Source: a virus
Length of the DNA stretch: 64,000 nt
IMG/VR virus record: IMGVR_UViG_3300045988_180412
Location: 1,841-65,840 of that record
Direction: 5' to 3' (one strand)
Position 1 is the stretch's first letter, and every line of letters starts with the position of its first letter. Positions 10,343-38,776 of this stretch are shown here, piece by piece. Made by a program: the position numbers and the translations under genes. The notes below the pieces were generated by a model, which saw only the letters and a list, made by a program, of their open reading frames with translations, ran no database searches and had not been told where the DNA came from.

Positions 10343-10382
10343 AGCGATTTTTTTTAAGTGCGGCCAACATCGACCGACTTCG

Positions 10383-10390
10383 CAAAGGTA
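10383..10390 (-). promoter_or_regulatory. Bacteroidota -7 box (TACCTTTG on minus strand)
   Basis: Matches TAnnTTTG, 41 nt upstream of the ATG at 10342. Confidence 0.4.
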
Positions 10391-10409
10391 GCTATGACTA
10401 AGCCTTATG

Positions 10410-10718: not shown

Positions 10719-10857
10719 CGCTGAATTGTTAAAAACGGACGCGGCACAAAACAAATACGCAGCGCCCCGTGTTAAGGATTTACACACACACATAGTCTTA
10801 CGGTATTTATGTGGGTAAACCCTATGACGCGGAACACTGCGTTGTGGGGTTTATTCG

Positions 10858-13800: not shown

Positions 13801-15639
13801 AACGGGGTATTGGGTGATTACAAATTCATAGTCATCACTGATGGCCAGCCGCCCGTCCGTAAACATCATCTTGGCTTCGCCGCCAGTCCTATCGCCTAAT
13901 ATCGGCTTCCAAACTCGCTCGGAGTATTGCTCGGGCGTTTCTTTCGCGTTCTTGGCGCTGCCCCAAATGTTCTTAACCCATACGTCAAAGGTGTTGCCCC
14001 AACCGTTATCGGCATCGTCGGCTATGGTGAGCTGTCCGCTCGTAATACCGACATCTACGGTTATGGCCTTGTCTTTAACCAACGAGGTTACGGACACGGT
14101 ACATTCATAGTACCACTCGCCTGCAGTCAATCCGCCTGCGCTATGCTCTGCACCGCCACCTGCGGGATAACACTTTATTACATAGTTTGTTATCTGTGCG
14201 CTCTTGGCAATGTTAAGGTCGGCGGCGGTGTCATCCCAATCTCTTAGTAACGCGAACATTGTCGAGTCTCTTACTCGCACTATCTTGGGCGAAATATCCA
14301 AATTGGCGGTCTTGCCCTGCGGTACGCTAAATGTGCCGTTGCTGCGTATAATGACGCTCTTGGTCGCTGTGGCGGGCAGGTCGCTTAGGGTTACGCTTTT
14401 GGGGTCGCTTAGGTTTACAAGCTGCGCCTCGCCTTTGGCGGAGGCCTTGTAGTCATCTGTCGTTACTTGCTCGATGTAGACGGCTTCGTCTATGCGCCCG
14501 TAAGGATCTACAATTATTCCTTGTATGGTCGGGTATATGCCGGTGGCGTTTTCTAACCCGTGCCACAGCTCTCCGTATTTTTCTATGCTTTCATCGTCTT
14601 TGACGTATTCCACGGGGTCGAATTTGGTGTCTGTATGGCCTTTCTTGTATGCCCAATCACTCTCGCCGCGCGTTGCGTCATAAGTCTCTACGGATATGGC
14701 TTTTTTTGTACTCTTGTCGATTATGGCTTTGCCGTTTAGGTCGGTCAGCTGTCTGTTCGCATTGGTTTTCCAGCCTTGTACGTAACAACGGAAGTTGTAA
14801 TCCCTTAGCGCGTCAAAGTATATATTGGCCAATTCGGGTATCCAATCGGGGTCGGGACGGAAGTCGGGGTTGTTTTCGTCGATGTCCTTAAAGTATCTAA
14901 ACGGCAGATTTTCTTCGCCGCCACGACCTAAAAGAATGTTGTATAATCCGTCATCCTGCACTTGCCGCTCGATTTTCAGCAGGCCGCCGTCAAAACCGTA
15001 TTGGAAAATATGGTCTAATTCGGTGGCGGCATAGCCTATCTTAATGACATACCGCTCGCCGCTCGGCTTATGATTGTTGTTGTCGCTTGCAGCTTCTATC
15101 GTCCAACGCACTCCGTAAAGTTCGTATATCTTGGTGATTACATCCCATATATGCGAGTAACTGATGTTTACGGTTACGGCATCCGTATGACTCGCCGCCG
15201 CACTTGCGTCTAATTTTACCTTAATCTTTTCGCCGAAGTTGCGCTGTAAGACTTGCCCGAGCAAGTCGGCGAAGTCTTTAAGGTTTAGCGATACGGGAAC
15301 AATGTATTTGTCTGCAACGGCTGTCCCCGTATCGGTGGGCTGTATGGTCGTGAAATATTTATTTTTCAATTGGTATATAGCCCAATGCTGAAATGTCATC
15401 TCGCCCGAGACGTCAAACGAGGTGTTCCCTTTGCTTACCCCGGGTTCTTTTAACGGCATAATATATTTCTCGCCGCGATATTCCAACACCCAGTCATACG
15501 GCGCTATCAACTCGTCTGATTGATACTCGATTTGCGCCGTTGCGGTTATGGTCTTTTCGCCCATATCCACACAGCTCGCCTTGACCTCGCCTCTAAGCAC
15601 AATGTCCGAAGGCAACAGTAATATCTTGACTTGTTCCAT
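10858..15639 (-). CDS. tail tip / Tal-like protein with receptor-binding extension (1593 aa)
   Basis: Lies immediately downstream of Dit. Size and N-terminal domain are typical of siphovirus Tal. An internal segment (NMLYNSAFEGGSKGWTSNG...) resembles a CBM4/9-type sugar-binding module. Confidence 0.8.
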   Translation of the reverse strand: MEQVKILLLPSDIVLRGEVKASCVDMGEKTITATAQIEYQSDELIAPYDWVLEYRGEKYIMPLKEPGVSKGNTSFDVSGEMTFQHWAIYQLKNKYFTTIQPTDTGTAVADKYIVPVSLNLKDFADLLGQVLQRNFGEKIKVKLDASAAASHTDAVTVNISYSHIWDVITKIYELYGVRWTIEAASDNNNHKPSGERYVIKIGYAATELDHIFQYGFDGGLLKIERQVQDDGLYNILLGRGGEENLPFRYFKDIDENNPDFRPDPDWIPELANIYFDALRDYNFRCYVQGWKTNANRQLTDLNGKAIIDKSTKKAISVETYDATRGESDWAYKKGHTDTKFDPVEYVKDDESIEKYGELWHGLENATGIYPTIQGIIVDPYGRIDEAVYIEQVTTDDYKASAKGEAQLVNLSDPKSVTLSDLPATATKSVIIRSNGTFSVPQGKTANLDISPKIVRVRDSTMFALLRDWDDTAADLNIAKSAQITNYVIKCYPAGGGAEHSAGGLTAGEWYYECTVSVTSLVKDKAITVDVGITSGQLTIADDADNGWGNTFDVWVKNIWGSAKNAKETPEQYSERVWKPILGDRTGGEAKMMFTDGRLAISDDYEFVITQYPVYDTSKTLNGVSSHWRITLAKSDADLESTGMYVPNTKQQGKAGDHFVFIGTEMTHDYTLWAEKRLRQYKEEKLKDTANIKPTWVVTTDKVRMNDEGLGEYTLFEQIREGCTVRLRDPKLIIDKSYETLYIQSITKTFNVDGSPLPDLEIVLSDKYETSASSVALLSDSVEEIQKRLGSLGNTEQIVRAIGDKLYLRKDGVRDISISPTQFASLLTSDDFRKGNVDGTGWGFYKNANGEWVLEADNIVTRRELKVNTLVINQITARGGTIIESAANMEVYSVVKSGSDYICYFDQRSGSVANLFEVGDVAYCTRYDAQNKTIKTYKRKVTAVGLDNLTLSGTITNGTGIPSAGDTLVQYGNYTNAERQYVKVRDVIGGGYERYIEGLDSVDAAGDEYYYVGRQTGVYGGKPRFFIGDKGDQYLEMLDGKITTNCTLEVTSKVGNQSIGEYVYDNAPYVGENMLYNSAFEGGSKGWTSNGNIATVITDKAYKHNGYNSVKLSASGNTSDKYYGMVQWGWYTPDTLLITPGEQYTASVYVRCDDLSALDYAVNMVIGSSTSDYNVANSTTVQIKPNLTAGQWVRIERTFTVAETGKWAFMRIYLQRNGTVYISQPKIEKGKKATAWCPNNHDSADRVTDMDYITKALGQSTTVSGGLVLSSLIQVGEKTTSGYTVRAGINGLWGGGGAVMLWAGGVMEDAAKPTASANAAKFLVRADGTAYAANNTVRFGVNTMEVGKNVILDDEGLKLQDIDTGDTLLRITNQSIGDDVTSESQSSVSLNQTKTVSISYKRVENSGDMGSIALPDGAYLDNKTLTTIAVGDQPLTAGSAISASITLDIPMPDTIMSGAVVARITRDGQLYKERMLQLTKNGDSYRAACSFSEVVSSAGTYAIILATTAATIPTSSFTEQLTPSTLNVKGYGRYGESPGNNIGNDGVRFTWGTTTFLCKEGKLVMRAGNFGLKVDATGIYKFDETTKQWVAANL

Positions 15640-17141
15640 TATTTGGCTCGCTTAAATACCACGTTTGAATTTGTCCCCTCGCGGAGATTGAATATCATAA
15701 ATTCCATCTTGCCCTCGGCTATATAACTGGTGTATGACATAGTCATGGGGACATCATTCTCCGCAGCCTGATAATCTGTAACTTTACCCGTTTCGTCTTT
15801 TTGCACCCAGTACGGTGCATTTCCGTAAGCCCGCGTTGTGCCGCTTACGCTGTCACCCCTGCGCAACGGAATGGTTACGTAGCGCAGATAATCGTGCGCC
15901 GCAACATTGCCGTTGGACGCCATAACGCCTATCGTGCCGTTAACCGTCTCAAAACGCACCTCATCGGCATTGTGCTTCACCACAGCGTAACATCCGTCTT
16001 TGCCCTCACGGACATTAAACGTGAAGTACACCGTGTCGTCATACTCGGATATGTATACAAACGGCTCAAACGCATCTCCACGCGGCTGTTTGTAAGCCAG
16101 CGCCTTGCCGCTCGCGTCCGTAACCACCCAGTGCGGTGCATTTCCGTAAGCCCGCGTTGTGCCGCTTACGCTGTCACCCCTGCGCAACGGAATGGTTACG
16201 TAGCGCAGATAATCGTGCGCCGCAACATTGCCGTTGGACGCCATAACGCCTATCGTGCCGTTAACCGTCTCAAAACGCACCTCATCGGCATTGTGCTTCA
16301 CCACAGCGTAACATCCGTCTTTGCCCTCACGGACATTAAACGTGAAGTACACCGTGTCGTCATACTCGGATATGTATACAAACGGCTCAAACGCATCTCC
16401 ACGCGGCTGTTTGTAAGCCAGCGCCTTGCCGCTCGCGTCCGTAACCACCCAGTGCGGTGCATTTCCGTAAGCCCGCGTTGTGCCGCTTACGCTGTCGCCC
16501 TTGCGCAACGGAATGGTTATATGTCGCAAATTGGGATGGCTATAAATTTTGCCTAATGTCGTGCCGTCTGGCAATACAGCGGGCAGGGTTTGGGTCGTCA
16601 ACGCCACCGCACCACTCTCTGCATCGGTGGTGTTGTATAGTACCTCGGGCATCCCGTCTGTGTTCCGCTCTGTTGCCCATACACATTCTTTTGGATTGGC
16701 TACGTGTATCGTCAACTCAAACGCTATCCAGTCGCTTCCGCCGTAACTGCCTGTATGATACACTTCTGTCGGCTCGCTTACGGGCTTGGGATAACCCACA
16801 ATCTTTACTCTGTTGAGGTCGTTGTATAGCGTTACTTTTTGAGCATATAGCATACCGCCCTGACCGCGATTGAATAGCAATTTATTGAAGTCGTCTATCT
16901 TATTGTTGACGCTCTTGAAGTTGCCGTTGGGAGCTTCTACAAGGAATTTTACCTTGTAGTCAAAAGGAACCTCTATCGTGCGCGTGTCGATAAATTCTAC
17001 GCTGTCCTCAACGTATTTGGTCGTGGTGTAATCTTGTATGTCGGGCGCTGTCCGCTCATCGGCATCCAAATACACAAAACCGTATTTGTCGTAGGCATCG
17101 TATATCTCTCCTTTACCTATCTGTATCCTTGCCCTAATCAT
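15639..17141 (-). CDS. distal tail protein (Dit) with three tandem 107-aa insert domains
   Basis: Position is between the tape measure/lysis cassette and Tal. The N-terminal 150 aa are Dit-like, followed by a triplicated domain. Confidence 0.7.
   Translation of the reverse strand: MIRARIQIGKGEIYDAYDKYGFVYLDADERTAPDIQDYTTTKYVEDSVEFIDTRTIEVPFDYKVKFLVEAPNGNFKSVNNKIDDFNKLLFNRGQGGMLYAQKVTLYNDLNRVKIVGYPKPVSEPTEVYHTGSYGGSDWIAFELTIHVANPKECVWATERNTDGMPEVLYNTTDAESGAVALTTQTLPAVLPDGTTLGKIYSHPNLRHITIPLRKGDSVSGTTRAYGNAPHWVVTDASGKALAYKQPRGDAFEPFVYISEYDDTVYFTFNVREGKDGCYAVVKHNADEVRFETVNGTIGVMASNGNVAAHDYLRYVTIPLRRGDSVSGTTRAYGNAPHWVVTDASGKALAYKQPRGDAFEPFVYISEYDDTVYFTFNVREGKDGCYAVVKHNADEVRFETVNGTIGVMASNGNVAAHDYLRYVTIPLRRGDSVSGTTRAYGNAPYWVQKDETGKVTDYQAAENDVPMTMSYTSYIAEGKMEFMIFNLREGTNSNVVFKRAK
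15813..16520. repeat. 321-bp tandem repeat, 2 identical copies plus about 0.2 copy
   Basis: 15813-16130 is identical by eye to 16134-16451. The repeat continues about 65 nt into a third copy before diverging. Confidence 0.9.
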
Positions 17142-17617
17142 TGCTCTTGTGCCTTATCCTTATATGGTGTATACTTCAATGCCACTTTCTGCGGCGGTTG
17201 ACGACGCACACATTCTTCTCGGCTTGTTCCGAACTCGCGCTGACAATGCCACATCTTGTAAAAGTCTCGCTCTTGCTTTAATTCGCCTATCTCGTTGGCG
17301 TCTTTCAAGCGCTCGTTCTGTAACGTGTTCATGGCTTCTTGCAGCTTGCGGATGGCCTGTGTCTTGTCCTCGATAATATCTTCTTTGCGTGCGGCAAGTT
17401 TTATCTGTGCTTCAAGCTGCGCATTGAGTATGTCTATACTCTTGTGCGTGGCTTCTATGCGCTTTTCGTACAAGTCCCATTGGACGGCATCGGCCTCGGC
17501 ATTGGCTTTGTCGGCCTCGGCGTCTTTGATGCGTTTGTTCGCTCCGCGATATAACATCCAACTCAATAGTGTTGAACATCCTAAAATCGCACTTAATATA
17601 CCTAAAATCGTTTCCAT
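17138..17617 (-). CDS. N-terminally anchored coiled-coil protein (i-spanin- or holin-associated candidate)
   Basis: N-terminal transmembrane segment (ILGILSAILGCSTLLSWML) followed by a long heptad-rich helix. Confidence 0.5.
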   Translation of the reverse strand: METILGILSAILGCSTLLSWMLYRGANKRIKDAEADKANAEADAVQWDLYEKRIEATHKSIDILNAQLEAQIKLAARKEDIIEDKTQAIRKLQEAMNTLQNERLKDANEIGELKQERDFYKMWHCQREFGTSREECVRRQPPQKVALKYTPYKDKAQEQ

Positions 17618-17621
17618 TCAG

Positions 17622-18095
17622 CTATCTTGTATCGCGGTCAATCCGTTTGTAAGTCGCGTACTCGCCGTCATCGGCCTCGACTCGCGCATCATAAATATAC
17701 AACGGTACACATATCGGATTGCCGATATTGCGCCGCTGGTCGCATTTTACTCTCATTTTACTGCCGTTGCCGAAGTATAGCATCGGTATCACGCATTTAT
17801 CATAGTCCATGGCTACTCGTACCCAACCTTTGCAGTTGTGAAATACGTAAACATCGCCGCTTAGCGTCTCGCCGCGAAAGGTCTTGCCTACATATATGCC
17901 GCTGTCTCCGCAGTCCGAAAAGTATTCTTCTATGACCGAAAGGTCGGGATAGTGGTGTTCTAAACACCAGTCAACCATGACTTTATAATACTCTAACAGC
18001 GCATTGCGGTCTAAGCTGCCGAGACGCCCGTAACCGTCGACACACACTCCGCGCTCTCTCGCTTGGCGTATCAATATGTCTCTCAATTCGCTCAT
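17622..18095 (-). CDS. hypothetical protein (157 aa)
   Basis: ATG start in the packed gene string between the spanin-like genes. Confidence 0.5.
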   Translation of the reverse strand: MSELRDILIRQARERGVCVDGYGRLGSLDRNALLEYYKVMVDWCLEHHYPDLSVIEEYFSDCGDSGIYVGKTFRGETLSGDVYVFHNCKGWVRVAMDYDKCVIPMLYFGNGSKMRVKCDQRRNIGNPICVPLYIYDARVEADDGEYATYKRIDRDTR

Positions 18096-18526
18096 TTCTT
18101 GAATTTTTTAACAAGCCACCAAACTGCCGCACATAGTAATACAAAGGATACGCCCATAGCTATTCCGCCGACATCCATCTTGGCTTTCTCCCATCGGCTT
18201 AGCTTGCGCTCGACAGGCACAATCTTGCTTATGGTGTCGGTCTTTATGCTTATAAGGGTGTCTGTCTGATGTACTACCTTGATGCGCTCTTTCTCGCGAT
18301 AGTCTATTATGGTATCACCCTTGACGTACACAAAACGAGTGTTGTTTACCGTGTCTGTATGCAATTCTTTGACTATGCGGTCTTTGTACTCGGTGCGAAC
18401 ACTCTCGACAGGCACGTATTCTATCTTTGTCTTGCATCCCGACAGCAACGCCGCAAGCCCGGCAATGGCTAAGGCGTACACTGCCGTAAGTAGCAAACAT
18501 CCTATTCTCGCAAATCTATCTTTCAT
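18092..18526 (-). CDS. lipoprotein with C-terminal transmembrane segment (unimolecular spanin candidate)
   Basis: Signal peptide with lipobox LSGC, plus a C-terminal transmembrane segment GIAMGVSFVLLCAAVWWLV followed by KKFKK. This is the same architecture as phage T1 gp11. Confidence 0.5.
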   Translation of the reverse strand: MKDRFARIGCLLLTAVYALAIAGLAALLSGCKTKIEYVPVESVRTEYKDRIVKELHTDTVNNTRFVYVKGDTIIDYREKERIKVVHQTDTLISIKTDTISKIVPVERKLSRWEKAKMDVGGIAMGVSFVLLCAAVWWLVKKFKK

Positions 18527-18951
18527 AGGTCTTTATATTCGGTTTTTGCATCAAAACTCGGGCAGGCTTTGTTCGCAAAGTCACGGTGCCCGTATATCTT
18601 GGCTTGGGGGTATTTCCGCCGCAGTTGCTTCAAAAGCGTCAGCAACGCGGCTTTTTGCTGCGGCGTGCGATTGTCAACGGGCGGCAACCCTTTTTTACTT
18701 GTGTCAACGCCGCCTACGTAGCATACGTTTATGGCGCGTTGGTTCTGCCCGTAACAGCCGTTGCTCACTTGTGCCTCGTCTACGGTGTTTACTGTTTTGC
18801 CATCGGCTTCAATAATGTAATGATACCCCGCAACGCGCCAGCCGCGTCCGCCAAGGCTTACGGGACGCAGGTGGTAAGCCACTATGTCCCGAGCCTTGGC
18901 GGATTGACCGCTTGCGCTGCAATGCACGATAATCTTGTCTATGCTTCGCAT
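18523..18951 (-). CDS. N-acetylmuramoyl-L-alanine amidase (Amidase_2/PGRP fold endolysin)
   Basis: Motifs IIVHCSAS, GYHYII, CYVGG, GHRDF and KACPSFD are present. Confidence 0.85.
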   Translation of the reverse strand: MRSIDKIIVHCSASGQSAKARDIVAYHLRPVSLGGRGWRVAGYHYIIEADGKTVNTVDEAQVSNGCYGQNQRAINVCYVGGVDTSKKGLPPVDNRTPQQKAALLTLLKQLRRKYPQAKIYGHRDFANKACPSFDAKTEYKDL

Positions 18952-18986
18952 TTGCTTATAACCGTTTTAGTGTGTTTTTCCTTTCG

Positions 18987-18994
18987 CAAAGTTA
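18987..18994 (-). promoter_or_regulatory. Bacteroidota -7 box (TAACTTTG on minus strand) ahead of the lysis cassette
   Basis: Matches TAnnTTTG. Lies in the 63-nt gap between the tape-measure stop (19015) and the amidase ATG (18951). Confidence 0.4.
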
Positions 18995-19014
18995 ATGATT
19001 ATCAACGGCATTTC

Positions 19015-22000
19015 CTAATTACGCAGGTAGACGTTTACGCCGTGGGTGCTTGTCGTCCCCTTGGGACTGATTACGCGGTTTAAGGCGTTTATGGCTTCCT
19101 GCATCTTTTGTACGGTCATCGCGGTGTTGGCCTCGATATTGGGCAAACAGGCTAAGTGTTGCTGTACAAGACTGTCGGCATCTACCGTGCCGCCGCTTAG
19201 CGTTTGTGTCGCACTTGTCGTGCCTGCAACCTGCGCCCTTATCGCGGCCACATTCTCGGCTATCAACGGTATCGGGCTGAAATAGTAGAAAGCGGTATTT
19301 ATCGCCGCAGTCAACGCGTTGATTTCTTCGCTCGTGGCACTCGCTACACTCTTGGCTATGCCGGTACTCTTGCTGTCGGTGTCGCCTATCAATTCTTTTA
19401 GGTCGTATCCTCGCGCTTCTAAGGCTCGCCACAACGTCTCCATGGCACTATTGGCTTGATTGGTAAACGCATCAAGGTTGTTGGCTAAGTAGTCCACGGC
19501 TTTCATCGTGTCGTTGGGATTGCTTTCAAGCAACGATTGTACTTGCTTCCACATCGGCGCAAGTATGGAGTCTATCAACTTGGCGGCCGCACCCTCGATT
19601 ACCATGCTCTTTATCATCTCTTTGTATTTGCTCTTGATGGCATCGGTGGTACTCGCAAATGTGGATTTGGCCTCTAACCAGCTTTGAGCAAATTCTTTGG
19701 CGGCACTCGACCTGTCTGTACCCAACATGCGCGAAGTCATGTCGTCTTGCAATTCACGTATCTTGTCTGCCGTCTCTCGCGCACTGTTCAAATAGCCCTC
19801 GTAGGCCTCTTTGTCTTTCTTCTTGCCTTTGCTCGCTTCGGCTTCGGCTTGTTTGAGATAGGCGGCTTGCTGGGCTTTCAGATTGGCCATTTGGGTGTTA
19901 TAGTTGCTGATATAGTCGCGCCCGAATAGTTTGTCGGCGGCATCGTTCAGCCTGTCATACGCGTATTGCAACTGCTCTAACAGGTTCTTTTGACGCTTGA
20001 TTTCTTTGTTGGCTCGCCGTATCCTGCCTGCATTGAAGATGCTGCTAAACCCGACTATCAGCTTGGGTATCGCGCTTACGGCACTCTTAACAATGCCTAA
20101 GACATTGCCCGAGGCTACGGATTTTATTATATCGTCTACCGCACCGCCTACTTGGTCTAAGCCGTCGGCTATGTCGTTCCAAAATTGCACATCTTCTTCG
20201 CTGCCGCCTAATGCGCCGATAGCGTCGGCTATGCCGTGTGCAACCATACCCATGTCCTTAATGAACTCGCCCGCCGCTTCACTCGCCAAACTTAACCAAT
20301 CGCTTAAACGCTTCCAGCTTAGTACCGCTTCTTGGGCTTCGTCTCGCGATTTCGTGGCGGCATCATACGTCCTTTTGGCGGTTTCTTGTTGCGCGGTCGT
20401 GCCTTTTTCCATAGCAAAGTCTAAGGAGACTTTCGCCGCTCCTAAAAGCGTCTCGGCGTTCTTTAATTTTTCTTCGGCCTCGTCTCGACTCTTGCTCCCA
20501 AGTGTATCTCCGTATTTCTTCATGTTGCGATATTGTTTTATCGCATCGCCCAAGGCCTTAAAGGGATTGCTCTTGGCCAACTGCTTGGAAATCTCGTTTA
20601 AGCGCTTCTGCAATTCTTTTAATTCTGTCGGATTTAGACTCTTTCCCCACTGGGATTTCAGTTGCATCAAACCGCTGCGCATTCGTTTCAGCATCTCGGT
20701 GCTTGCATGGTCTAAGTCCTCAAACATCGCTACGTAATACGGCATATCCTTAAAGGCTTCCCATTCAATCTTGGCTTGCTCGGTCTGTTCGCGTCGCTTA
20801 TACCCCGACGTCAGCATCTCCGCCTCTTTCTTGGGTATATTGCCTGCTGCCGCCAGCTTTTCTATCTCGGCTATCTTGGCCGCAGTCTCGCGTGCGAGTT
20901 TCACACGCTTGTCGGCATAGGTCTCGGCTACTTTGAGGTCTTTGAGGTATCCCTGATAGGTGTTGGCCAAACGCTTCTGCCCGTCATCGGCTATCTTTTT
21001 CAACTTGTCATACATCTCGCCGAGTTCTTCTTTGTTTTCTTCGGCAAATTTGCGCAACTCCTTGAAATTCACGATGTTATCGGCATTGATTATCCCTTTG
21101 GGCAGCTTGACGGCCTCGACACTGCCCACTATCTGACGTATTTCATCGGCCATAAGCGCTTGCAAATCTGACCCCGTGCCGCCGAATATCGACTTGGCTA
21201 TATCCTCGGCTCGCGCCCTGCTGCCCGTCAGGTCAAAGATCTTGTCGTAAAATTCCTGCATCTCTTTGCTGCGGCTTACGCTGTCGGCTACCTCTTTGAG
21301 CTGTTCTTCTACCTGTTTGGCCAACAGTTCAAGGTTCAGATTGTCCCACTTCAATTGCAGTTCAAGCGCCGCTTTCTTGGCACCCTTCTGTTTGAGGTTG
21401 TCTATTATCTTGATAATCTTTTGGCTGACTTTTTCAAGCTCTTTAATGTCGAGAATATCGGACATCTTAAACGACAAACCGAAGCGCTTGCCAAGGTCGT
21501 TAAGACGCTTCAACGTCCCCTCGTACATCTGTTCTATATGCTTCGTTGCCGCCGTTTTACCCTCTTTTTTGACCAGCGCCTCGTATTTTTTGTAAATCTC
21601 TATGCGCTTGTCGTATATCTCTCGCAACTCCTGCAAGGTGGTATCGCTCTTGCGCCCCTTATTAGTCTTGGTGTCATCAGGCAAGTACGTGCGCTCGAAT
21701 TTGGCCTGCTCTTTAAGCGCCTTGACAAGTTCTTGTGTGTCGGCTATCTTTTGCGCATACATCTGCTGCGCAAGCCATCCGCCAACTTGTACGGCTCGCG
21801 ACCATCGCTTGATGTCTGCCTCGTACCCCGCTACGGCTTCATCTAACGCCTTGACATGCTCTTTAAGATTGTTGTTGCCGTCCCATAGATATTGTTTCAG
21901 CCTGCCAAAGGCCTTGCCTACAATACCGGTGTTCTCGGCCGTTACTATCAAGTGCTGCTGTATCTGTCGCACGGCAGGGTCGGTTGACGCTATGGTCTCT

Positions 22001-30493: not shown

Positions 30494-30512
30494 TTGGAGT
30501 TATTAAAACTTG

Positions 30513-30584
30513 TAGCGGCGACAGGACTCGAACCTGCGACCTGCGGGGAATGAACCCGCCGAGCTGCCTCTGCTCCACACCGCT
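30513..30584 (-). tRNA. tRNA with anticodon CAU (Met; initiator or Ile2 cannot be excluded)
   Basis: Hand-folded cloverleaf: acceptor AGCGGTG/CGCCGCT, D arm GAGC/GCTC, anticodon arm GCGGG-TTCATTC-CCCGC, T arm GCAGG-TTCGAGT-CCTGT, discriminator A. No CCA is encoded. Confidence 0.85.
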
Positions 30585-30655: not shown

Positions 30656-30856
30656 TCACTCGGACTTATTTACGCCCGTAAATCTTATGACGCTGTCTTT
30701 TATCTCGATTTCTATCGGCTTGCGGCATTTCCTGCACCACAACTCTATTTCACCGTTGTATACCGATAGTTTCGCAAGTATCGCGCCTCTGCGCCCGCGT
30801 TTCTCACACTCGGGACATCTTATTACAACCTTTTTCACGCCGCAAATATAATACAC
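30656..30856 (-). CDS. Com-like zinc-ribbon protein
   Basis: 66 aa with CPEC...CRKC. The arrangement matches Mu Com-type zinc ribbons. Confidence 0.55.
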   Translation of the reverse strand: MYYICGVKKVVIRCPECEKRGRRGAILAKLSVYNGEIELWCRKCRKPIEIEIKDSVIRFTGVNKSE

Positions 30857-30904: not shown

Positions 30905-30912
30905 TACCTTTG
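30905..30912 (+). promoter_or_regulatory. Bacteroidota -7 box TACCTTTG ahead of the terminase gene
   Basis: Matches TAnnTTTG, ending 16 nt upstream of the ATG at 30928. Confidence 0.45.
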
Positions 30913-30927
30913 CACAAAACACGGTTG

Positions 30928-33141
30928 ATGAAGTTTTCTCTCGTAAGCAATAACTTGGTTTTTCCGCCGCTTTACCCCGAAGCGGAACGCACTCTTGCCA
31001 CATCTAAAAGCAAGAGCCGTACTATCGTGGACGGGTACGAGTTGCGACCTAACCAAATCGACCTTATCCCGCAACCGGGACTGCAAGAACAGCTGTGCCA
31101 AAGCGAAGCTAACCTCGTTTTCATCTGCGGTCAAGCAACCAGCGGAAAGGCGCAACCATATACAAGCAAGGTCTTAACCCCTAACGGATTTGTCGAAATG
31201 GGGTCGCTTAACATCGGAGATGCAATCCTTGCCCCCGATAATTCAACACAAAGGGTGCTAAACATCTTCGAACAAGGCGAAATAGACGTTTGGCGCTTGA
31301 CTTTCGATGACGGCGCACAAACGGAATGCTGCAAAAACCATCTTTGGAAAGTTCGCACACCGATTAGCGAGTGGCGTGTTATCCGCTTCGAGGATGTTCT
31401 TAGTGCGTTTAATGCGCATCTTAAAATATACATACCTCTTTGCGCATCGTCTGTATATGAGAGGTTCAAGGAAAAAACGCCTGATACAGACAAACTCCGA
31501 AAGATTGTAAGAGCGGAGTATGTCGGCAAAAAACAATGCCGCTGCATTATGGTTTCGGGCGCTGAACATCTGTATGTAACTGACGATTTCATCGTTACGC
31601 ACAACACTTTCGCAATGTATCTCAATGCGTTACAGGGTGTTACGCACTATGGCTTTGCAGCTAAACTGATTTCAGTCCGCTTGCAGGACAGCAAAAAGGG
31701 CGGCTCGATGTTCCGTGACGGCGTAACGGTATGCGGCAATTTCGCTAATTGCGAGTATAATTCGGCGGATTACCCGACTTTCTCGTGGCCGCAATGGAAC
31801 AGCTCGCTGCAACTTATTCACTCTAATTTCAATGTAAACAACCCTGCGGAATGGGAACAGTTCCAAGATTACGCTAAGAAAGTGCAGGCGTCTCTGATAA
31901 TGGTGGACGAGGCTACGGAAATGAAGGAGTTTAAGATGTTCGCTTATTGGTTTAGCCGTAACCGCGACAGCTCGGGCATGACACCGCAAATGGTGTTATC
32001 CTTTAACCCGTCTCACGACCATTGGACTACTCAAATGCTATGCGATGCAGGGTATATCGGCGATGACTGGTATCTGCGTAAGGATATGATTGGCAAAGTC
32101 CGATATTGGTATAATAAGGGTAAATCTCCTGCCGAAATCGTTTGGGGGGACTCTCGCGAGGAAGTGGCGGACGCAGCAGGCCTTATCGACCGACCGGACG
32201 ATTTGGCCGCAGGTATCTCGCGATTGGATTATGTGAAGTCGTTTACGGTATTGACGGGTACTGCCGCTTCTAACCGCGAATTGGTGAATGCTACGGGTGG
32301 ACAATCTGTCGCAAATCTACACGCTACGGGCGCGGAGCAACGTCAAATTGTGGGCGAGGGATATTTCGGCGAAGTGGAAACGGAGGAAATCAATGTGTCG
32401 CGCGAAATGATTAACAACCTATGGACAAACCCCGTAAGCGATGACGTCAATATGTACGCTACCATGGACATTTCCTCGGGTAAGGCGGATAACGATAAGT
32501 CGCCTATGGTGATATGGCGCGGACTGCAAATTGTCGGGGTCGAGCTGTTCTCGGGCGAACCTAACGAAATGGCGGGGTGGATTAAAACTAAACTTAACGC
32601 TTACGGCGTTGACGTTACACGCTTCGCTTATGACGCTACGGGACACGGATATTGGATGCAGGGGCTGACTAACGGCGTGGCGGTTACGGCTAACAAACGG
32701 GCTATACAGGAGGTTGACGAGTTCGGAAACGCTGTAACTCGGGATGATTATTTTAATTGCCGCTCTCAATTGCTCGGCCGAACGGAGGTGATGATTAAAC
32801 GCGGTGATATTTCTTGCTCAATATCTCCCGATTTGCGTATCCCTTACGCAAAGGGTGGGGCAACACGAGCTCTCCGCGATATTCTGTATGACGAGATTAA
32901 CGTGTTCGCGACGACAACGCGCAACAAACGTATATACTACCGCTCTAAGGATGAGTATCGTGCTAAGTTCCGACATTCACCGGACTTAATGGACGCTATT
33001 TGCCTGCGTGCGGTTTTCGAACTTGACGCCCGACCGAAGAAGGCGCCGCTGCCGGCAGCGTCTCCGTTTGTATACAATAATCTGTATTCGGCATTTGCTT
33101 ATGCGGCTAAAAACCGTTGGAACAAGAATTTAGTTAGATAA
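30928..33141 (+). CDS. terL: terminase large subunit, interrupted by an intein
   Basis: Walker A GQATSGK/T is split by the insert. Walker B is LIMVDEATE. The C-terminal half is nuclease-like and a portal gene follows. The ORF track starts at TTG 30910; the first ATG is at 30928. Confidence 0.9.
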   Translation: MKFSLVSNNLVFPPLYPEAERTLATSKSKSRTIVDGYELRPNQIDLIPQPGLQEQLCQSEANLVFICGQATSGKAQPYTSKVLTPNGFVEMGSLNIGDAILAPDNSTQRVLNIFEQGEIDVWRLTFDDGAQTECCKNHLWKVRTPISEWRVIRFEDVLSAFNAHLKIYIPLCASSVYERFKEKTPDTDKLRKIVRAEYVGKKQCRCIMVSGAEHLYVTDDFIVTHNTFAMYLNALQGVTHYGFAAKLISVRLQDSKKGGSMFRDGVTVCGNFANCEYNSADYPTFSWPQWNSSLQLIHSNFNVNNPAEWEQFQDYAKKVQASLIMVDEATEMKEFKMFAYWFSRNRDSSGMTPQMVLSFNPSHDHWTTQMLCDAGYIGDDWYLRKDMIGKVRYWYNKGKSPAEIVWGDSREEVADAAGLIDRPDDLAAGISRLDYVKSFTVLTGTAASNRELVNATGGQSVANLHATGAEQRQIVGEGYFGEVETEEINVSREMINNLWTNPVSDDVNMYATMDISSGKADNDKSPMVIWRGLQIVGVELFSGEPNEMAGWIKTKLNAYGVDVTRFAYDATGHGYWMQGLTNGVAVTANKRAIQEVDEFGNAVTRDDYFNCRSQLLGRTEVMIKRGDISCSISPDLRIPYAKGGATRALRDILYDEINVFATTTRNKRIYYRSKDEYRAKFRHSPDLMDAICLRAVFELDARPKKAPLPAASPFVYNNLYSAFAYAAKNRWNKNLVR
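31150..31605 (+). mobile_element. 152-aa mini-intein (class 3-like) in the TerL P-loop
   Basis: The insert runs from AQPYTSKVLTPNGFVEMGSLNIGD to EHLYVTDDFIVTHN and is followed by Thr. Its removal restores GQATSGKT. Confidence 0.8.
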
Positions 33142-33157
33142 CCTTAATACGTTGATA

Positions 33158-34903
33158 ATGATAAACATATCGGAACACCTTAAAAAGGATTTTTGGCATA
33201 GACGATGGGTCGGTGACAAAACACCGCCACCGCCGACAAATCCTGAGTTTTACGCAATCCCCGAAAGATTGCCGCACGTCAATCGCCGCGACCTTACTCA
33301 GGATGATTTCGCTAATGAAGTAAGCGTGTCGGCACACAATATCAATTCTCTATATCAGTCGGCGCGGCCTATACGCGAGGCTTTCCCTAAATTTGATGAA
33401 AACGGGAACCCCGTACTCGATAAGGACGGAAACCCGGTGCAGGAGTGGCGAACCGTGGGATATGACGACCTCGAAACTACCCGATATGGGTTGCAATACC
33501 GCTTCGCTATGTGCAAAACGGCGCATTTCGCAGGCAACGGGTGGGGTATTTACAACGAGCAAACGGATAAGTCGGAAACAGCGCATAGCCGATATGATAC
33601 GCTGTGTTCGTGGCGAGACATCGCAGGCCTTGATATGGCGTTTGTCGAGGTCGTAAAGTCGTGCTTCACCTCGGGCGATGGTGCTATATATCTGTATCAG
33701 GACGGCAACAGCATCGCTTACGAGGTGTTTTCGTTCAACAAGGGGGATGTGCTTTTCCCTGATTATGACGAAAATCATTTCCCGGTACTTTATCGCTTAT
33801 ATACACTCAAAGGTCAACGCGCGGTGGACATCTTCGGCGCGGAATACATCGAAACTTGGGTTAATGCGGATGTGTCGGATAAGGGGAAGTCTACCGTCAA
33901 TAAATGGTTTACGCAAATTCGCGGATGGTTCAAGTCGCACGATTTCGCTTTATCGGAGGACGGATGGACTCGCATAAGCCAACGTAAAACACAAACGGGT
34001 GGCATCGTCAACGCTTGCGTATATTTCCGCATTGACGACATCCCAAGCGGTATCGTACAGGAGGATATAGAGGCTCTGGAACGCTCGGCAAGCTATGTGG
34101 CCGAGGGCGTCAAAGCTGCGGCCTTTGATACGCTGTTTATCAAGGCCACCAATATCCAAAATCTCCCCGAAGTCGGCTCTTTCGGAAGCGTTATCGGCGT
34201 AACGGGCAATGTGGAGGAGCTTAAAGCATCTGACGCTAAACGTCTACCCCCAAGCAATATATCGGACGTGGCAACTATCGACCTCAAAGAGAAAAAGGAG
34301 AGCATTCTTCATGCGTCTATGTCGGTTATTCTCGACCCTGATGTGCTGCGCAGCGGAGCGGATTCGTCAAGCGCTATGCGCCTGTGCTTTAATGACGAGG
34401 TAAAGTGGTGCATGGCTATGCAACCGCAATTCTATAAGCCGCTGCAACAACTGACCAACGCGCTTAAAGCTATCGTCGCCAAAGTGGAGAAAGACCCGGA
34501 ATATGCCTCTTTGCGTGTATCGGTGGGCATGAACATTTGGACACCGAATAACGTTAGTGAAGCAGTGGAGAATGCAACCAAATTGGTCTATGCAGGAGTG
34601 CTATCGCGCGAAAACGCCCGTCACGAATTGGATATTAATTATCCGGATGATCTGAATATCGTTTACGGCGAAACGGAACGAGAGCTGTACCAAAAGACTT
34701 ATACGCCGCTGAAAGCTAAGTATGACGCCGAAAGAAAGTTCGGAATCGCGGATGTCGCTAATGACATCGTGGTCGGAAACAGCGAAAGTGTTCCGCAAAC
34801 CGCAAACGATAAACGCGCCGACTCGGAAAGGGCACTGGCCGACCGAAACGCTTACACGGCTGCCGTTGATAACAACGCTAACCGTAAACCTATTGACATT
34901 TAG
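33158..34903 (+). CDS. portal protein
   Basis: About 580 aa, directly after terL. The ORF track starts at TTG 33152; the first ATG is at 33158. Confidence 0.75.
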   Translation: MINISEHLKKDFWHRRWVGDKTPPPPTNPEFYAIPERLPHVNRRDLTQDDFANEVSVSAHNINSLYQSARPIREAFPKFDENGNPVLDKDGNPVQEWRTVGYDDLETTRYGLQYRFAMCKTAHFAGNGWGIYNEQTDKSETAHSRYDTLCSWRDIAGLDMAFVEVVKSCFTSGDGAIYLYQDGNSIAYEVFSFNKGDVLFPDYDENHFPVLYRLYTLKGQRAVDIFGAEYIETWVNADVSDKGKSTVNKWFTQIRGWFKSHDFALSEDGWTRISQRKTQTGGIVNACVYFRIDDIPSGIVQEDIEALERSASYVAEGVKAAAFDTLFIKATNIQNLPEVGSFGSVIGVTGNVEELKASDAKRLPPSNISDVATIDLKEKKESILHASMSVILDPDVLRSGADSSSAMRLCFNDEVKWCMAMQPQFYKPLQQLTNALKAIVAKVEKDPEYASLRVSVGMNIWTPNNVSEAVENATKLVYAGVLSRENARHELDINYPDDLNIVYGETERELYQKTYTPLKAKYDAERKFGIADVANDIVVGNSESVPQTANDKRADSERALADRNAYTAAVDNNANRKPIDI

Positions 34904-34981
34904 TGTTTTTGAGGTTTGTTACTTTGATGTTTTTTTCATTGTCGATTTCTAAGACTTTTTTCAGTTGTTTTGGAAATGGGG

Positions 34982-35017
34982 AAGCCGCCCGACCGTGAGG
35001 TTAGGCGGCTTTTTTTA
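34982..35017 (+). terminator. rho-independent terminator after the portal gene
   Basis: 8-bp stem AAGCCGCC (34982-34989) pairs with GGCGGCTT (35004-35011). T-run extends to 35017. Confidence 0.7.
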
Positions 35018-35027
35018 TGGCTCGTAC

Positions 35028-35240
35028 TTATACTTTCCCGAATATCTGCCTTGGTCGTACAACGTCTATGCGCTCGTCTTTGGCATTCTTGACTATGTAG
35101 TACTTCCCGAAAATATCGCGCTTGATTGCCTTGATATACCCGTGGCAATACATGCGACTGTGGCACACGAAGATGCCGCGCCATCGCGCTCGCAAACGGA
35201 TGTAGTATTCTATCTTGTCATTGTTCTTTAACGGGTTCAT
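35028..35240 (-). CDS. hypothetical basic protein (70 aa)
   Basis: Last ORF of the minus-strand string. Confidence 0.4.
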   Translation of the reverse strand: MNPLKNNDKIEYYIRLRARWRGIFVCHSRMYCHGYIKAIKRDIFGKYYIVKNAKDERIDVVRPRQIFGKV

Positions 35241-35787
35241 TATCCTCTCTTTTTATGTTCCCTAATTTCACCTGCTCGTCTATAAATATCTTGTAGGCGC
35301 AATCCGAACACCGCACGGGCAGGTAACGGCGCGGCGCCTCGATTTTAACCTCATCTTCTTTCAGATAACCGACTTTTTTCAATAAATCGGCTTGGTCTTT
35401 TAGTATCTCGGCATCGGTGTTGGTGTTGGTCTCTACGCTCGTGGCTACATCGTTTGCAAATTTTTTCATCACCCGCTCTTTGCGCGTGCCACTTACTTCT
35501 ATGCCGCTGGGTACGTCTTTGCCGCGCTTTATTACATCGCGCAATGTCCGCTTGTAGGCTTCTATATAGTCTTTGTGTTTTCTGTACGCAAAAAACTGCC
35601 TGCACGCTTCTTTCCCGGCTTTGTTCAGATTGCCGTCTATGCCTAAATACATCGGGAAAAATCGCTTGAAAGCGGCTTCATAGGTGGTATCAAACGCTAC
35701 ATGGTAATTCATGCAGTCGCGGTCGTCAACGGGTATGTCGCGCCACTTGTCATCACCCTCGGGCTTTATAGGTAAAAAGTTGTTCAT
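35218..35787 (-). CDS. hypothetical protein; candidate small terminase subunit
   Basis: 189 aa. The N-terminal helical segment (NLNKAGKEACRQFFAYRKHKDYIEAY) loosely resembles TerS HTH regions. It would sit directly upstream of terL if 30.9-35.0 kb were inverted. Confidence 0.4.
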   Translation of the reverse strand: MNNFLPIKPEGDDKWRDIPVDDRDCMNYHVAFDTTYEAAFKRFFPMYLGIDGNLNKAGKEACRQFFAYRKHKDYIEAYKRTLRDVIKRGKDVPSGIEVSGTRKERVMKKFANDVATSVETNTNTDAEILKDQADLLKKVGYLKEDEVKIEAPRRYLPVRCSDCAYKIFIDEQVKLGNIKREDNEPVKEQ

Positions 35788-36143
35788 CGCTCACCGTATT
35801 CTTTGGGAAAAACATAGCGCACGGTCAGTTCGTTGCCGATGTCTTTCAAGACTTCGCATTTAACTCCGTATCCGCGCATAACATCGTCTAAAATAGCCGT
35901 AACAACGTCTCGCACACTGTTGGTATGCCCGACATATTCTAAGTCGTCAGCATCCATAATATCACACAAAATACCGCACCTGAACGTTACAAGCACACTG
36001 CCGTGACCATCTCCGCTCTCGCCTTGCAATACTAAGCCTCTGCCGTATTTATGCACCACGGGGCGCAGGTCGTTGTTTGTCCATAGGCTCGCGTCTTTGA
36101 TTTCTACCAAGTCGCCGTGCCTCAATTTTTTTCTGTCTGACAT
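35784..36143 (-). CDS. hypothetical protein (119 aa)
   Basis: ATGA overlap in a packed gene string. Confidence 0.5.
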   Translation of the reverse strand: MSDRKKLRHGDLVEIKDASLWTNNDLRPVVHKYGRGLVLQGESGDGHGSVLVTFRCGILCDIMDADDLEYVGHTNSVRDVVTAILDDVMRGYGVKCEVLKDIGNELTVRYVFPKEYGER

Positions 36144-36517
36144 CCTTGTTTTATCTCTCTTAATTCTATAACCAAAACTTTGTCGCGGTCAAAGCCGTTA
36201 CGACCTAAACCCTCAACGATACAATCTGCCTCCCATTTGCTGCATAGCGCATTGTAGTTGAAGGTCTCTCCGTAAATGGCTTTGCCTAAAAACGTGAAGG
36301 CCGACGACGCAACCGCCACCTCGCTCTTTTGAACAAGGATGTAGCGCTTGCGCCGCCGACCGTCCCAACAATCTACTCGCGTGCCGCTTCGTGCCGCTCG
36401 CAAACGATTGTTGCAATACAATCCGACAGGCAGCATCGCAAACATTCGCTCGGTACTCGGCAAGACGTGTCTGATGTCTATCTTTTTAACCCGCGTAACC
36501 GACATTCTTTCTCCCAT
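36122..36517 (-). CDS. hypothetical protein (131 aa)
   Basis: ATG start, co-directional. Confidence 0.5.
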   Translation of the reverse strand: MGERMSVTRVKKIDIRHVLPSTERMFAMLPVGLYCNNRLRAARSGTRVDCWDGRRRKRYILVQKSEVAVASSAFTFLGKAIYGETFNYNALCSKWEADCIVEGLGRNGFDRDKVLVIELREIKQGCQTEKN

Positions 36518-37233
36518 TTGGTCAGATTATACGTTTGCAATGCCAATCCGACAGCGCAAATAAAGCTCTCGTATTGCGTGGGCTTCAAGCAGTGCCTGCG
36601 CCGCTCATTGAACAACGCAGCTTTATCATCGCTTATCACGCCGTCCGCATCACGCCAATCATCGGCCTCGCCTAACAGATAACGCATGTCTCTGCGACGC
36701 AAATCAAAGCACATCAATTGAATGGTGTCTACATATTCTTGCGGCTTGATGTTCTTGATGCCTTTGCGTGTCCACCACGCACGACTGCGCTCGCAAAACG
36801 CGTTGAAGTCGCAGTCGGTCGGGGCTTCTATGTAGTCTTTTATGCCTTTATTGTAAAAGCATTGCGCAACGGGCAAAAAACAGCTTAAAAAATTGGCCTT
36901 GAATTTTCGCATGGACGCGAAAAAGGTCTGCATTACTCCGTATTGACGCTGCAAACGAGAACGAACATGCAATCGCAATTGCCATTCTAATTCTTCTACA
37001 TCGTAGCCGTCGGTGATAAAGCCGTATTGACCGGGTTCTGTGTGGTTCTGGATAAACAAACGACACAGCCCCTCGTCCTCGACATCTCGCGCATCGGATA
37101 CCCCGAGCTTGTAAACGTAGTCCAACAGCGAAATCATGCTGCGGATGGACTGACGGTTCACAAATCCGCGGTTTAACGGATTAATCGCGCCCTGACCCCG
37201 CCACGTTATCGACTTCGCGCTCTCCCAACTCAC
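36478..37233 (-). CDS. hypothetical protein (about 250 aa; start uncertain, GTG in ORF track)
   Basis: Long ORF with no motif recognised. Confidence 0.5.
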   Translation of the reverse strand: MSWESAKSITWRGQGAINPLNRGFVNRQSIRSMISLLDYVYKLGVSDARDVEDEGLCRLFIQNHTEPGQYGFITDGYDVEELEWQLRLHVRSRLQRQYGVMQTFFASMRKFKANFLSCFLPVAQCFYNKGIKDYIEAPTDCDFNAFCERSRAWWTRKGIKNIKPQEYVDTIQLMCFDLRRRDMRYLLGEADDWRDADGVISDDKAALFNERRRHCLKPTQYESFICAVGLALQTYNLTKWEKECRLRGLKR

Positions 37234-37795
37234 TTTCTCCTCCCGTTTTATCGGTTATTATCCCATCTTCCGCCATGATGTCTTTCATCTCTTTGCGTGA
37301 ACGCTCTCGCGCCCGACGAGCCGAGCGCTTCCCTTTGGCTATCGCCGCACCGCGCTCTACCGCTTCTTCCATTAACGCCTGCGAACCTGCCTCATCGGCC
37401 TCTGTAACGCTTTCGGCGGCTTCCTCAGCGTGCTTCATCGTCCGCTTGAAGTATTTGCCCAACGCTCGCTGCAAGTCGTCAGCAAAGCCCTTATCGCACG
37501 TTACGGTACTCAACGTCTGATACATCAACGTCGCAAATCCCTCGATGTAATCCTCGCGCTCTTGACCGGCAGCCGCAAGAAGATATGCGTATGCAGGCAA
37601 TCGCGCATCCAGCTTCATCTCAAAGATGCCGTCATGTCCGCGTATCTCTACTCGCGAACTCGTAAAGTCGCCCTCGCTGTAATAAATCTCGACAATGATT
37701 GCTCCGTTGCCGAAGTCATACCTGAACAGAGGTTTCTCTTTAACACCGCGCCACACTTCATAGGCCTTGCGCATCTTCTTAATACTTATTCCCAT
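37181..37795 (-). CDS. hypothetical protein (204 aa)
   Basis: ATG start. The C-terminus is acidic/basic and low in complexity. Confidence 0.5.
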   Translation of the reverse strand: MGISIKKMRKAYEVWRGVKEKPLFRYDFGNGAIIVEIYYSEGDFTSSRVEIRGHDGIFEMKLDARLPAYAYLLAAAGQEREDYIEGFATLMYQTLSTVTCDKGFADDLQRALGKYFKRTMKHAEEAAESVTEADEAGSQALMEEAVERGAAIAKGKRSARRARERSRKEMKDIMAEDGIITDKTGGESELGEREVDNVAGSGRD

Positions 37796-37858
37796 GTCTC
37801 TCTCTTTTTTAAGTTAATATTAAGTATATCAGTTATAATTCACGTTTTCACAATTCCG

Positions 37859-38776
37859 TTATCCCCATATTTCCAATTCCAATTGCTTGTCTTGCACCGC
37901 TCCCTCATACTGACCCTTCGGCCTCCACAACTTTTCGACACGCCGTAGGCTGTTATTCGTGGCGCTCGCGCTGCATACGACATCCCATTGCGCCACACAC
38001 ACAAACCTATCCTCGGGCATCGCGTACTCGCTTATAAACAGCGGCTGCGTCTGCGCCTCGCACCAGTCGTAAAACGCCTCGTGGTCAAAGCGCACGCCGT
38101 AATCGCCCTTTTGGGTCGAAGTCCGATACGGAATATCGGCATATATTACGCTGCCATCGGGTATCTCCACATCGCGGTAATCACCCACGGAATACGTCAG
38201 CCTTTCCGGACTTTGCAGCCTTTCCAGCCTTTCCAGCCTTTCCAGCCTTTCCAGACTTTCCAGACTTTGCAGCCTTTCCAGCCTTTCCAGACTTTCCAGA
38301 CTTTGATTATCGCCGCGCACTTTCGCTGTCTTTCCCCTAATAAGCGGCACAAGCTGCCGCACTACCTCCCTATAAGCCTGACGGCGCTCGCGCACGCTGT
38401 CAGCCGTCAGCATCATCCAAACAGCTCGCTTATATGGCTCTATCTCGCGCGAGTAAAGATAATCCTGCCCGTTATTCCCGAAGCTCCAACAACTGCGAAC
38501 ATAGGGGTCGCTGTCTTTAAGCGCAAAGAAGTCCTCGCGACTTATCCAACGCCGCTCATCACGGTACTTCCCCGCAACGGCATCCACAAACAACTGCGGC
38601 ATATCGCTTATATCGTTGATATGGATATGACCCCATTTGCCGCTCAACGCCGCACAATGCGCTATCGCACAACCGCCGCAAAATACATCATACAAATGCT
38701 CGGCACGCGGCAACAACGATACTATACGCTCGGCCAACTTATTCTTACTCCCCATATAGGGCATTCCGTATCGCAT
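37859..38776 (-). CDS. D12-class N6-adenine DNA methyltransferase (Dam-like) with internal tripeptide repeat
   Basis: N-terminal MPYMGSKNKL, motif I DVFCGGCA and a DPPY-like ADIPY are present. The LER/LES/LQS repeat lies between them. Confidence 0.8.
   Translation of the reverse strand: MRYGMPYMGSKNKLAERIVSLLPRAEHLYDVFCGGCAIAHCAALSGKWGHIHINDISDMPQLFVDAVAGKYRDERRWISREDFFALKDSDPYVRSCWSFGNNGQDYLYSREIEPYKRAVWMMLTADSVRERRQAYREVVRQLVPLIRGKTAKVRGDNQSLESLERLERLQSLESLERLERLERLERLQSPERLTYSVGDYRDVEIPDGSVIYADIPYRTSTQKGDYGVRFDHEAFYDWCEAQTQPLFISEYAMPEDRFVCVAQWDVVCSASATNNSLRRVEKLWRPKGQYEGAVQDKQLELEIWG
38200..38307. repeat. 12 tandem 9-bp units (GCCTTTCCA / GACTTTCCA / GACTTTGCA)
   Basis: Direct reading. 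The array is in frame within the Dam gene and encodes (L-E/Q-R/S)n. Confidence 0.9.

Follow-up and report, generated by a model that had tools for sequence, protein, structure and literature searches.

Class 3 inteins are defined by a residue 1 that is not Cys, Ser, or Thr and by the presence of Trp at B12, Cys at F4, and Thr at G5 (together, W-C-T), with a +1 residue that is usually Thr or Ser (PMC2807308; PMC5050341). Terminases and P-loops are typical hosts and sites of these elements (Tori et al. 2010, PMC2807308), and the position between the Lys and the Thr of the P-loop in the large terminase, TerL, has been called a "classic" insertion site, with class 3 terminase inteins among those described (Kelley et al. 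2016, PMC5050341). A survey of actinobacteriophages from 2025 counted 293 terminase inteins and gave class 3 sizes of 225-359 aa (bioRxiv 10.1101/2025.01.02.630785), and TerL inteins have been reported in gut crAss-like phages (PMC7886860). Class 3 mini-inteins are also known, with splicing demonstrated (PMC5222942), and structures exist (6bs8 and 6rix). Here we describe an insert of 152 aa in the TerL gene of a 64,000-nt stretch of the virus record IMGVR_UViG_3300045988_180412 (positions 1,841 to 65,840 of that record), which is called the window below and to which all coordinates refer. On the basis of sequence comparisons and structural models, we consider the insert to be, with a probability of about 0.85, a functional class 3-type mini-intein that lies in the TerL P-loop of a Bacteroidales-type gut phage or prophage and excises itself from the precursor protein.

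The insert adds one more ordinary member to a family that is very large and has already been described. In common with the class 3 inteins of phage and actinobacterial ATPases, namely those of MP-Be DnaB, Mycobacterium smegmatis (Msm) DnaB (DnaBi1, 6bs8), and Mycobacterium chimaera DnaB (MchDnaB-1, 6rix and 6riy), it has the P-loop insertion, the HINT fold, and the marker set, and its size agrees with those of Msm DnaBi1 (139 aa) and MchDnaB-1 (145 aa). However, its identity with the solved class 3 inteins is only ~20%, its host protein is a Bacteroidales-type phage terminase, position 7 of block B is Cys instead of the Asp of Msm or the Ser of MP-Be, and an extra, invariant Cys exists at F2. 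The TerL1-a P-loop inteins of mycobacteriophages reside in the same kind of host protein and at the same Lys-Thr site of the Walker A motif, whereas the terminase in the window belongs to a different family, its match to Terminase_6N being weak, and the host phylum is different. Phage terminases are the main intein hosts, and mini-inteins are seen as decay products (Kelley et al. 2016, PMC5050341; the actinobacteriophage survey); the 152-aa intein is smaller than any class 3 intein in that survey. The best match of the insert, the gp41-1 intein (6qaz, and gp41-1_WCT, 6riz; PMC7664689), was obtained with an E value of 3.6e-12 and a TM score of 0.73 on the target, and it shares the motifs ...EHL(F/W)..., ...I(D/C)IEVSG..., and (L/V)THN with the insert, but it belongs to class 1, is split by nature, and has Cys1 and Ser+1, and its W-C-T graft is non-splicing. 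Finally, an allele of 338 aa with a LAGLIDADG homing endonuclease occupies the same insertion site in a relative. The new part is modest: it consists of the 152-aa class 3 form in the terminase of an uncultured Bacteroidales-type lineage, in which public annotation has recognized neither the terminase nor the intein.

The insert and its host gene

The terminase gene and the parts of the insert are laid out as follows.

30910..33141, plus strand: TerL precursor reading frame including the intein, 743 aa (list of open reading frames; PHROG; Foldseek; portal gene downstream)
30910..31149, plus strand: N-extein, ending with GQATSGK, the first seven Walker A residues, at 31129-31149 (intein-less homologs reading CGQATSGK/TF)
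31150..31605, plus strand: class 3-type mini-intein, 152 aa, 456 nt, Ala1 to Asn152, AQPY...VTHN (phmmer against the PDB; AlphaFold model; Foldseek)
31150..31353, plus strand: N-terminal splicing region, blocks A and B, intein aa 1-68, with His64 (B10) and Trp66 (B12) (conservation of H-L-W)
31354..31512, plus strand: linker, intein aa 69-121, the site of the LAGLIDADG homing endonuclease in relatives (alignment with the endonuclease-bearing allele; confidence of the model)
31513..31605, plus strand: C-terminal splicing region, blocks F and G, with Cys130 (F2), Cys132 (F4), Thr150 (G5), His151, and Asn152 (alignment; conservation)
31606..33141, plus strand: C-extein from Thr+1 (31606-31608), with the Walker B motif LIMVDEATE at 31894-31920 and the nuclease domain (tblastn; Foldseek)

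The translation reads ...FICGQATSGK/AQPYTSKVLTPNGFVEMGSLNIGDAI...EHLYVTDDFIVTHN/TFAMYLN, where the slashes mark the junctions. The insert separates the Lys from the Thr of the Walker A motif, GQATSGK/T, and its deletion restores GQATSGKT. The original prediction, made from the sequence alone, had placed a 152-aa insert at just these positions within the Walker A motif of TerL, and when the codons were checked base by base, from GCG of Ala1 (31150-31152) to AAC of Asn152 (31603-31605), this placement proved correct to the base; its further statements that removal of the insert recreates the P-loop and that the Walker B motif follows hold equally well. In the set of the best 120 TerL homologs, 105 proteins have an insert at the GK/T site and 15, of 573-604 aa, are insert-free and read ...CGQATSGK/TF(A/S/G)M(Y/F)LKAL..., which shows that the insert is not a permanent domain of these terminases. 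One of the intein-less homologs, P0020, which is 75% identical, served both as a tblastn query and for AlphaFold modeling. Its residues 1-74 were aligned to 30928-31149 and its residues 75-572 to 31606-33099 of the window, and because the alignment breaks at 31149/31606, the gap is exactly 31150-31605. The same tblastn search found no second copy of TerL in the window, and a second intein was also looked for there, with none found. The minus-strand open reading frames at 31131-31625 and 31258-31602 were taken as by-products of the coding strand.

The assignment of the host protein as TerL is sound. The precursor matches the PHROG family phrog_979 at an E value of 2.6e-16, and the intein-less P0020 matches it at 1.3e-20; phrog_2 and phrog_9526, both terminase families, are further matches, and tblastn also finds the large terminases annotated in Acinetobacter phage TaPaz and Bacteroides LoVEphage. 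Pfam gave only a weak match to Terminase_6N (E 0.044), and sequence and profile searches of the PDB with the intein-less homologs (P0020 and alignment A2) returned no terminase. Confidence in the AlphaFold model of P0020 is low, the predicted local distance difference test (pLDDT) score being 61, and the best 33 Foldseek matches of this model are all phage terminases or DNA-packaging ATPases, headed by Sf6 gp2 (E 5.7e-13) and followed by the nuclease domains of E217 and Sf6 and by T4 gp17, D6E, and HK97. In the same low-confidence model, the Walker A motif is placed in a strand-loop-helix arrangement like that of a P-loop, and for the C-extein the Foldseek matches include the TerL nuclease domains 8dkr and 5c2d. 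The features expected of TerL, i.e., an ATPase with Walker A and B motifs, a C-terminal RNase H-like nuclease, and a portal gene as neighbor, are thus all present.

The insert itself is a HINT/intein domain in a mini form without an endonuclease. When the insert alone was used as the query, phmmer against the PDB detected gp41-1 intein structures (E 3.6e-12 for 6riz, and 4e-9), the class 3 Msm DnaB intein 6bs8 (E 1.9e-4), and the MchDnaB-1 intein (E 2e-3), and in PHROG the insert matched the intein-bearing portions of phrog_50 (E 1.5e-17) and phrog_36964. The AlphaFold model of the insert, which was built on 25 sequences, has a mean pLDDT of 82.5 and is nearly all beta; the score falls below 50 at residues 105-115, where the linker is partly disordered in the model. 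Foldseek placed this model closest to gp41-1 (6riz and 6qaz), MchDnaB-1 (6riy and 6rix), and 6bs8. The best 26 matches are all inteins, and at E<=1e-3 all but a few of the 48 matches are inteins or Hint-type domains, Hedgehog and BIL domains included. A word-indexed protein search with the intein alone gave 3 matches only. The Hint-domain landmarks recognized in the original prediction, including the block B His (His64), the terminal His-Asn, and Thr+1, are borne out by these results, and its claim that a homing-endonuclease domain is missing agrees with Pfam and NCBIfam, which find none in the insert. As to the profile search it proposed, support for the Hint domain comes from the PDB, PHROG, metagenome, and fold searches and not from the curated models, among which Pfam Hint_2 stayed sub-threshold (E 0.053) and NCBIfam intein_Cterm scored 14.8 bits against a cut-off of 15.6. 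Had only these curated models been consulted, the proposal would have been refuted wrongly for want of Hint similarity.

Class 3 markers and the predicted splicing route

The insert carries the complete marker set of class 3, i.e., Ala1, Trp66 at B12 two residues after His64, Cys132 at F4, Thr150 at G5, the terminal His-Asn, and Thr+1, encoded at 31339-31341 (His64), 31345-31347 (Trp66), 31537-31539 (Cys130), 31543-31545 (Cys132), 31597-31599 (Thr150), and 31600-31605 (His151 and Asn152). The HMMER alignments pair Cys132 both with Cys118, the catalytic residue of 6bs8, and with D107C, which was engineered into gp41-1_WCT (6riz), and they place His64-Leu65-Trp66 against HQW of 6bs8. The Ala1, the Trp two residues after the block B His, the CRC sequence, and the Thr before the terminal HN had all been assigned correctly in the original prediction, and its identification of this combination with the published W-C-T signature agrees with the definition in PMC2807308 and with the alignment to 6bs8. 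Among the 105 same-site inteins, residue 1 is variable (A in 82, M in 14, E in 8, and S in 1), whereas H-L-W, C-(R/Q)-C, VTHN, and Thr+1 show no variation. A residue 1 that varies while the block F Cys stays constant is predicted by the class 3 mechanism and forbidden by the class 1 mechanism.

To examine the wider family, 1.84 billion representative proteins were scanned exhaustively with HMMER; 9,058 of them scored E<=1e-3, of which 5,328 reached E<=1e-10, and the best match had an E value of 2.4e-51. Markers were counted in 178 complete inteins taken from the top 149 of these proteins: 177 have the full W-C-T set, Cys at F4 is found in 177 and Thr at G5 in all 178, a nucleophile at residue 1 is absent from 170, and 121 follow a GK dipeptide, while the +1 residue is Thr in 147, Ser in 28, and Cys in 3. 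By sequence, the insert is a typical member of a very large, homogeneous, P-loop-favoring class 3 family. As a separate observation, many large proteins in the representative set (among P0124-P0172) contain a pair of class 3 inteins from this family, and in some, e.g., P0126, P0144, P0151, P0160, and P0168, the two are only 3-7 residues apart, so that the C-extein of one is the N-extein of the next.

If the insert follows the published class 3 pathway (PMC2807308), from which we infer both splicing and its route, the 743-aa precursor would be translated with a split ATP-binding loop and would be inactive as a packaging motor. Cys132, aided by His64, Trp66, and Thr150, would then attack the bond between Lys(-1) and Ala1, and the N-extein would be held as a thioester before being transferred to the side chain of Thr+1, the predicted second nucleophile. 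Cyclization of Asn152 would free the 152-aa intein, and an O-to-N shift would rebuild GQATSGK-T in a mature TerL of ~591 aa. Judging from the position of the insert, the precursor should be unable to bind or hydrolyze ATP normally, and packaging would consequently need splicing. Disruption of ATPase function by a P-loop intein has been described for RadA, as cited in PMC6195587.

Several points weigh against this interpretation. The best sequence match in the PDB, gp41-1, is a class 1 intein, and grafting of W-C-T plus C1A onto gp41-1 gave no splicing (PMC7664689); the W-C-T triplet alone is therefore no proof of mechanism. In addition, position 7 of block B, which is Cys in the insert, varies among C, S, G, D, E, and T in its relatives, and the insert was missed by the curated Pfam and NCBIfam models. 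Moreover, the window is a metagenome-type sequence, which makes the viability of this exact phage a presumption. The failure of the gp41-1 graft would also be compatible with a working intein that uses a route other than class 3, for example a class 2-like direct attack of Thr+1 on the N-terminal junction with assistance from the block F Cys, and Ala1 is indeed also found in class 2 inteins of the KlbA type (PMC2807308). Known class 2 inteins, however, are without W-C-T and use Cys+1, whereas the +1 residue is Thr in all 105 same-site inteins and W-C-T is complete here, and the nearest solved natural relatives that lack a nucleophile at residue 1 are proven class 3 inteins. We therefore regard such a route as the least probable of the explanations considered in this study.

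The cysteines of the insert raise a further question, already touched on in the original prediction, namely, whether the class 3 intein has in addition been adapted as a conditional switch. According to this idea, Cys132 would form a disulfide or bind zinc together with Cys130, and perhaps with Cys60/61, thereby gating terminase maturation: packaging would be held under oxidative or metal stress and released when conditions become reducing. Precedents exist among class 3 DnaB inteins. Under H2O2, a disulfide between Cys48 and Cys118 blocks the Msm DnaBi1 intein in a reversible manner (PMC6195587), N-cleavage of MchDnaB1 is inhibited by H2O2 (PMC7664689), and zinc likewise has a blocking effect on a class 3 DnaB intein (PMC7360933). 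Cys130 shares a strand face with the catalytic Cys, which it precedes by two residues, and the C-x-C of block F is present in every one of the 105 inteins at the terminase site; among the 178 nearest inteins elsewhere, only 66 have Cys at F2. In contrast, Cys60/61 of block B is not conserved, being Ser-Ser in 31 relatives; the likely hosts are strict anaerobes whose cytoplasm is reducing; oxidant sensitivity is general to Cys-dependent inteins and needs no selected function; and the conservation is already covered by the selfish-element explanation. A regulatory role of this kind thus appears unlikely to us. If it were real, exposure of the host to O2, oxidants, or zinc would gate packaging in phages of strictly anaerobic gut bacteria; unless conditional splicing proves true, the intein does not change the knowledge of inteins or of DNA packaging.

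Conservation, endonuclease loss, and history

The inserts found at the same site in the best 120 homologs range over 143-349 aa: 13 are mini forms of 143-162 aa, ~40 are of 213-282 aa, and ~50 are of 306-349 aa, many of the last group with LAGLIDADG Pfam domains. The 152-aa form exists in at least 10 protein clusters, at 92-99% identity, and on many contigs. One terminase family displays the intein life cycle, with the site empty, endonuclease-bearing, intermediate, and mini. Among the inteins at this site, ~35 of intermediate size (254-264 aa; P0027-P0031, P0036, and P0069-P0111) have no Pfam endonuclease on record, and in most of them the block B His is preceded by Ser-Ser and not by Cys-Cys; an endonuclease that is decaying or has escaped recognition could be present in these forms.

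The allele most instructive for comparison is that of P0010, whose extein is 97% identical to that of the window over the aligned region and whose intein has 338 aa. Its residues 1-68 and its last 30 residues are identical to those of the window intein, and 186 extra residues with a LAGLIDADG_3 domain are present at the linker. Given the loss of the homing endonuclease in the window intein, in contrast with its presence in such a close relative, the window intein is probably no longer mobile; it has probably been retained because imprecise loss would destroy an essential motif. The locus of P0010 (L001; ENA ERZ1034992 NODE_119) was used as the reference for nucleotide comparison. No nucleotide difference is found over 31144-31352 (209 nt, intein codons 1-68), as compared with 30 differences in the adjacent 210 nt of the N-extein and 55 in 1533 nt of the C-extein, and the flanks of the identical patch differ from L001 every 25-30 nt. 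This pattern in the sequences suggests a recent exchange of the N-terminal half of the intein between phage lineages. On the other side of the patch, L001 has 721 nt in place of window 31353-31515, and the linkers are only ~50% identical over 27 aa. The formation of the mini-intein by a simple deletion of the P0010 endonuclease was rejected on these grounds, i.e., 31353-31515 cannot be aligned to the L001 DNA and the linker identity is low. Because identical N-terminal codons lie next to a linker that does not align, the comparison suggests recombination between intein lineages as the origin, rather than one clean deletion. Apart from these points, L001 itself has an unusual structure: its positions 10001-19082 match window 31516-33631 at 96% and then step back to window 32164-37943 at 84%, which yields two diverged copies of the C-terminal part of TerL and the portal start, with an extra gene for 476 aa between TerL and portal. 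Either two strains have been joined here in a chimeric assembly, or the duplication is real.

Selection on the splicing domain can be read from the same comparisons. Over the 98 shared codons of the splicing blocks (1-68 and the last 30), the window and L001 differ by 6 synonymous and 0 nonsynonymous changes; counted over the last 31 codons, there are 5 synonymous changes and 1 nonsynonymous change, the latter at codon 122, and the last 30 codons have no nonsynonymous change. In the ten closest mini-intein carriers (relatives P0001-P0009), the splicing blocks are 90-100% identical, with 97-100% for the region of aa 1-68, as compared with 94-98% for the C-extein and 84-99% for the N-extein. The linker identity, on the other hand, drops to 64% in P0008 and P0009, whose exteins are 94-95% identical. 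Conservation of the blocks together with divergence of the linker indicates purifying selection on the splicing domain and drift at the former position of the endonuclease. A drifting linker and a lost endonuclease might also be expected of a splicing-dead remnant in a defective prophage, whose terminase would be nonfunctional or would work with the insert as a permanent domain; the integrase-like and transposase-like genes described below make a prophage possible, and a pseudogene of a class 3-like intein is on record (PMC3196547). This scenario is hard to reconcile with catalytic residues that are all intact and invariant, with splicing blocks conserved at or above the level of the exteins and free of nonsynonymous change relative to L001, and with the recurrence of the 152-aa form across clusters and contigs. 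Furthermore, a P-loop cannot tolerate 152 extra residues, and the reading frame is uninterrupted across all 743 codons. A dead remnant is accordingly judged very improbable.

Phage context

Indirect support for splicing in vivo comes from a cultured phage, Parabacteroides phage PF672P2. Its TerL homolog gene (OP172820.1, 24864-27704; L005, 2998-5838) contains an intein of 365 aa at the same GK/T site, with A1, HLW, CRC, and VTHN/T. The gene is entered in GenBank as "hypothetical protein," with neither the terminase nor the intein annotated. The same label is given there to the terminase of the lineage in the window and its relatives, and the curated Pfam and NCBIfam models miss both terminase and intein. 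Recognition of the intein makes the gene annotatable and provides a mature TerL of 591 aa that can be used for phylogeny, and a compact natural class 3 intein of 152 aa could interest protein engineers.

The closest cultured relatives of the phage in the window infect Parabacteroides, and one intein-less homolog is located on a 1.17-Mb contig labelled Alistipes. The gene content of the window includes a phage morphogenesis module, primase/helicase, sliding-clamp-like, integrase-like, and transposase-like genes, with the genes for the major head, tape measure, and minor head proteins situated upstream of TerL on the opposite strand. Because of the Parabacteroides relatives, the Alistipes-labelled contig, and the gene content, the evidence suggests a temperate phage of gut Bacteroidales. 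In view of its integrase-like and transposase-like genes, the element may be either a temperate phage or a prophage, and part of the window may be flanking or mobile DNA. The GC content of the window is 48%, and that of the intein is 46%. The neighboring and other features are as follows.

30512-30584, minus strand: tRNA-Met, anticodon CAT, a single gene between the head-module genes and the terminase gene
30656-30856, minus strand: reading frame of 66 aa with two Cys pairs (CPEC...CRKC), just upstream of TerL
33152..34903, plus strand: portal protein gene directly downstream of TerL (phrog_64, E 4.3e-8)
50129-51298, minus strand: integrase-like gene (phrog_1, E 3.7e-25)
62862-63818, minus strand: transposase-like gene (phrog_4646, E 7.6e-82)

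The small reading frame just upstream of TerL has no PHROG match; its product resembles a zinc ribbon and recalls the small regulators of the Com type.

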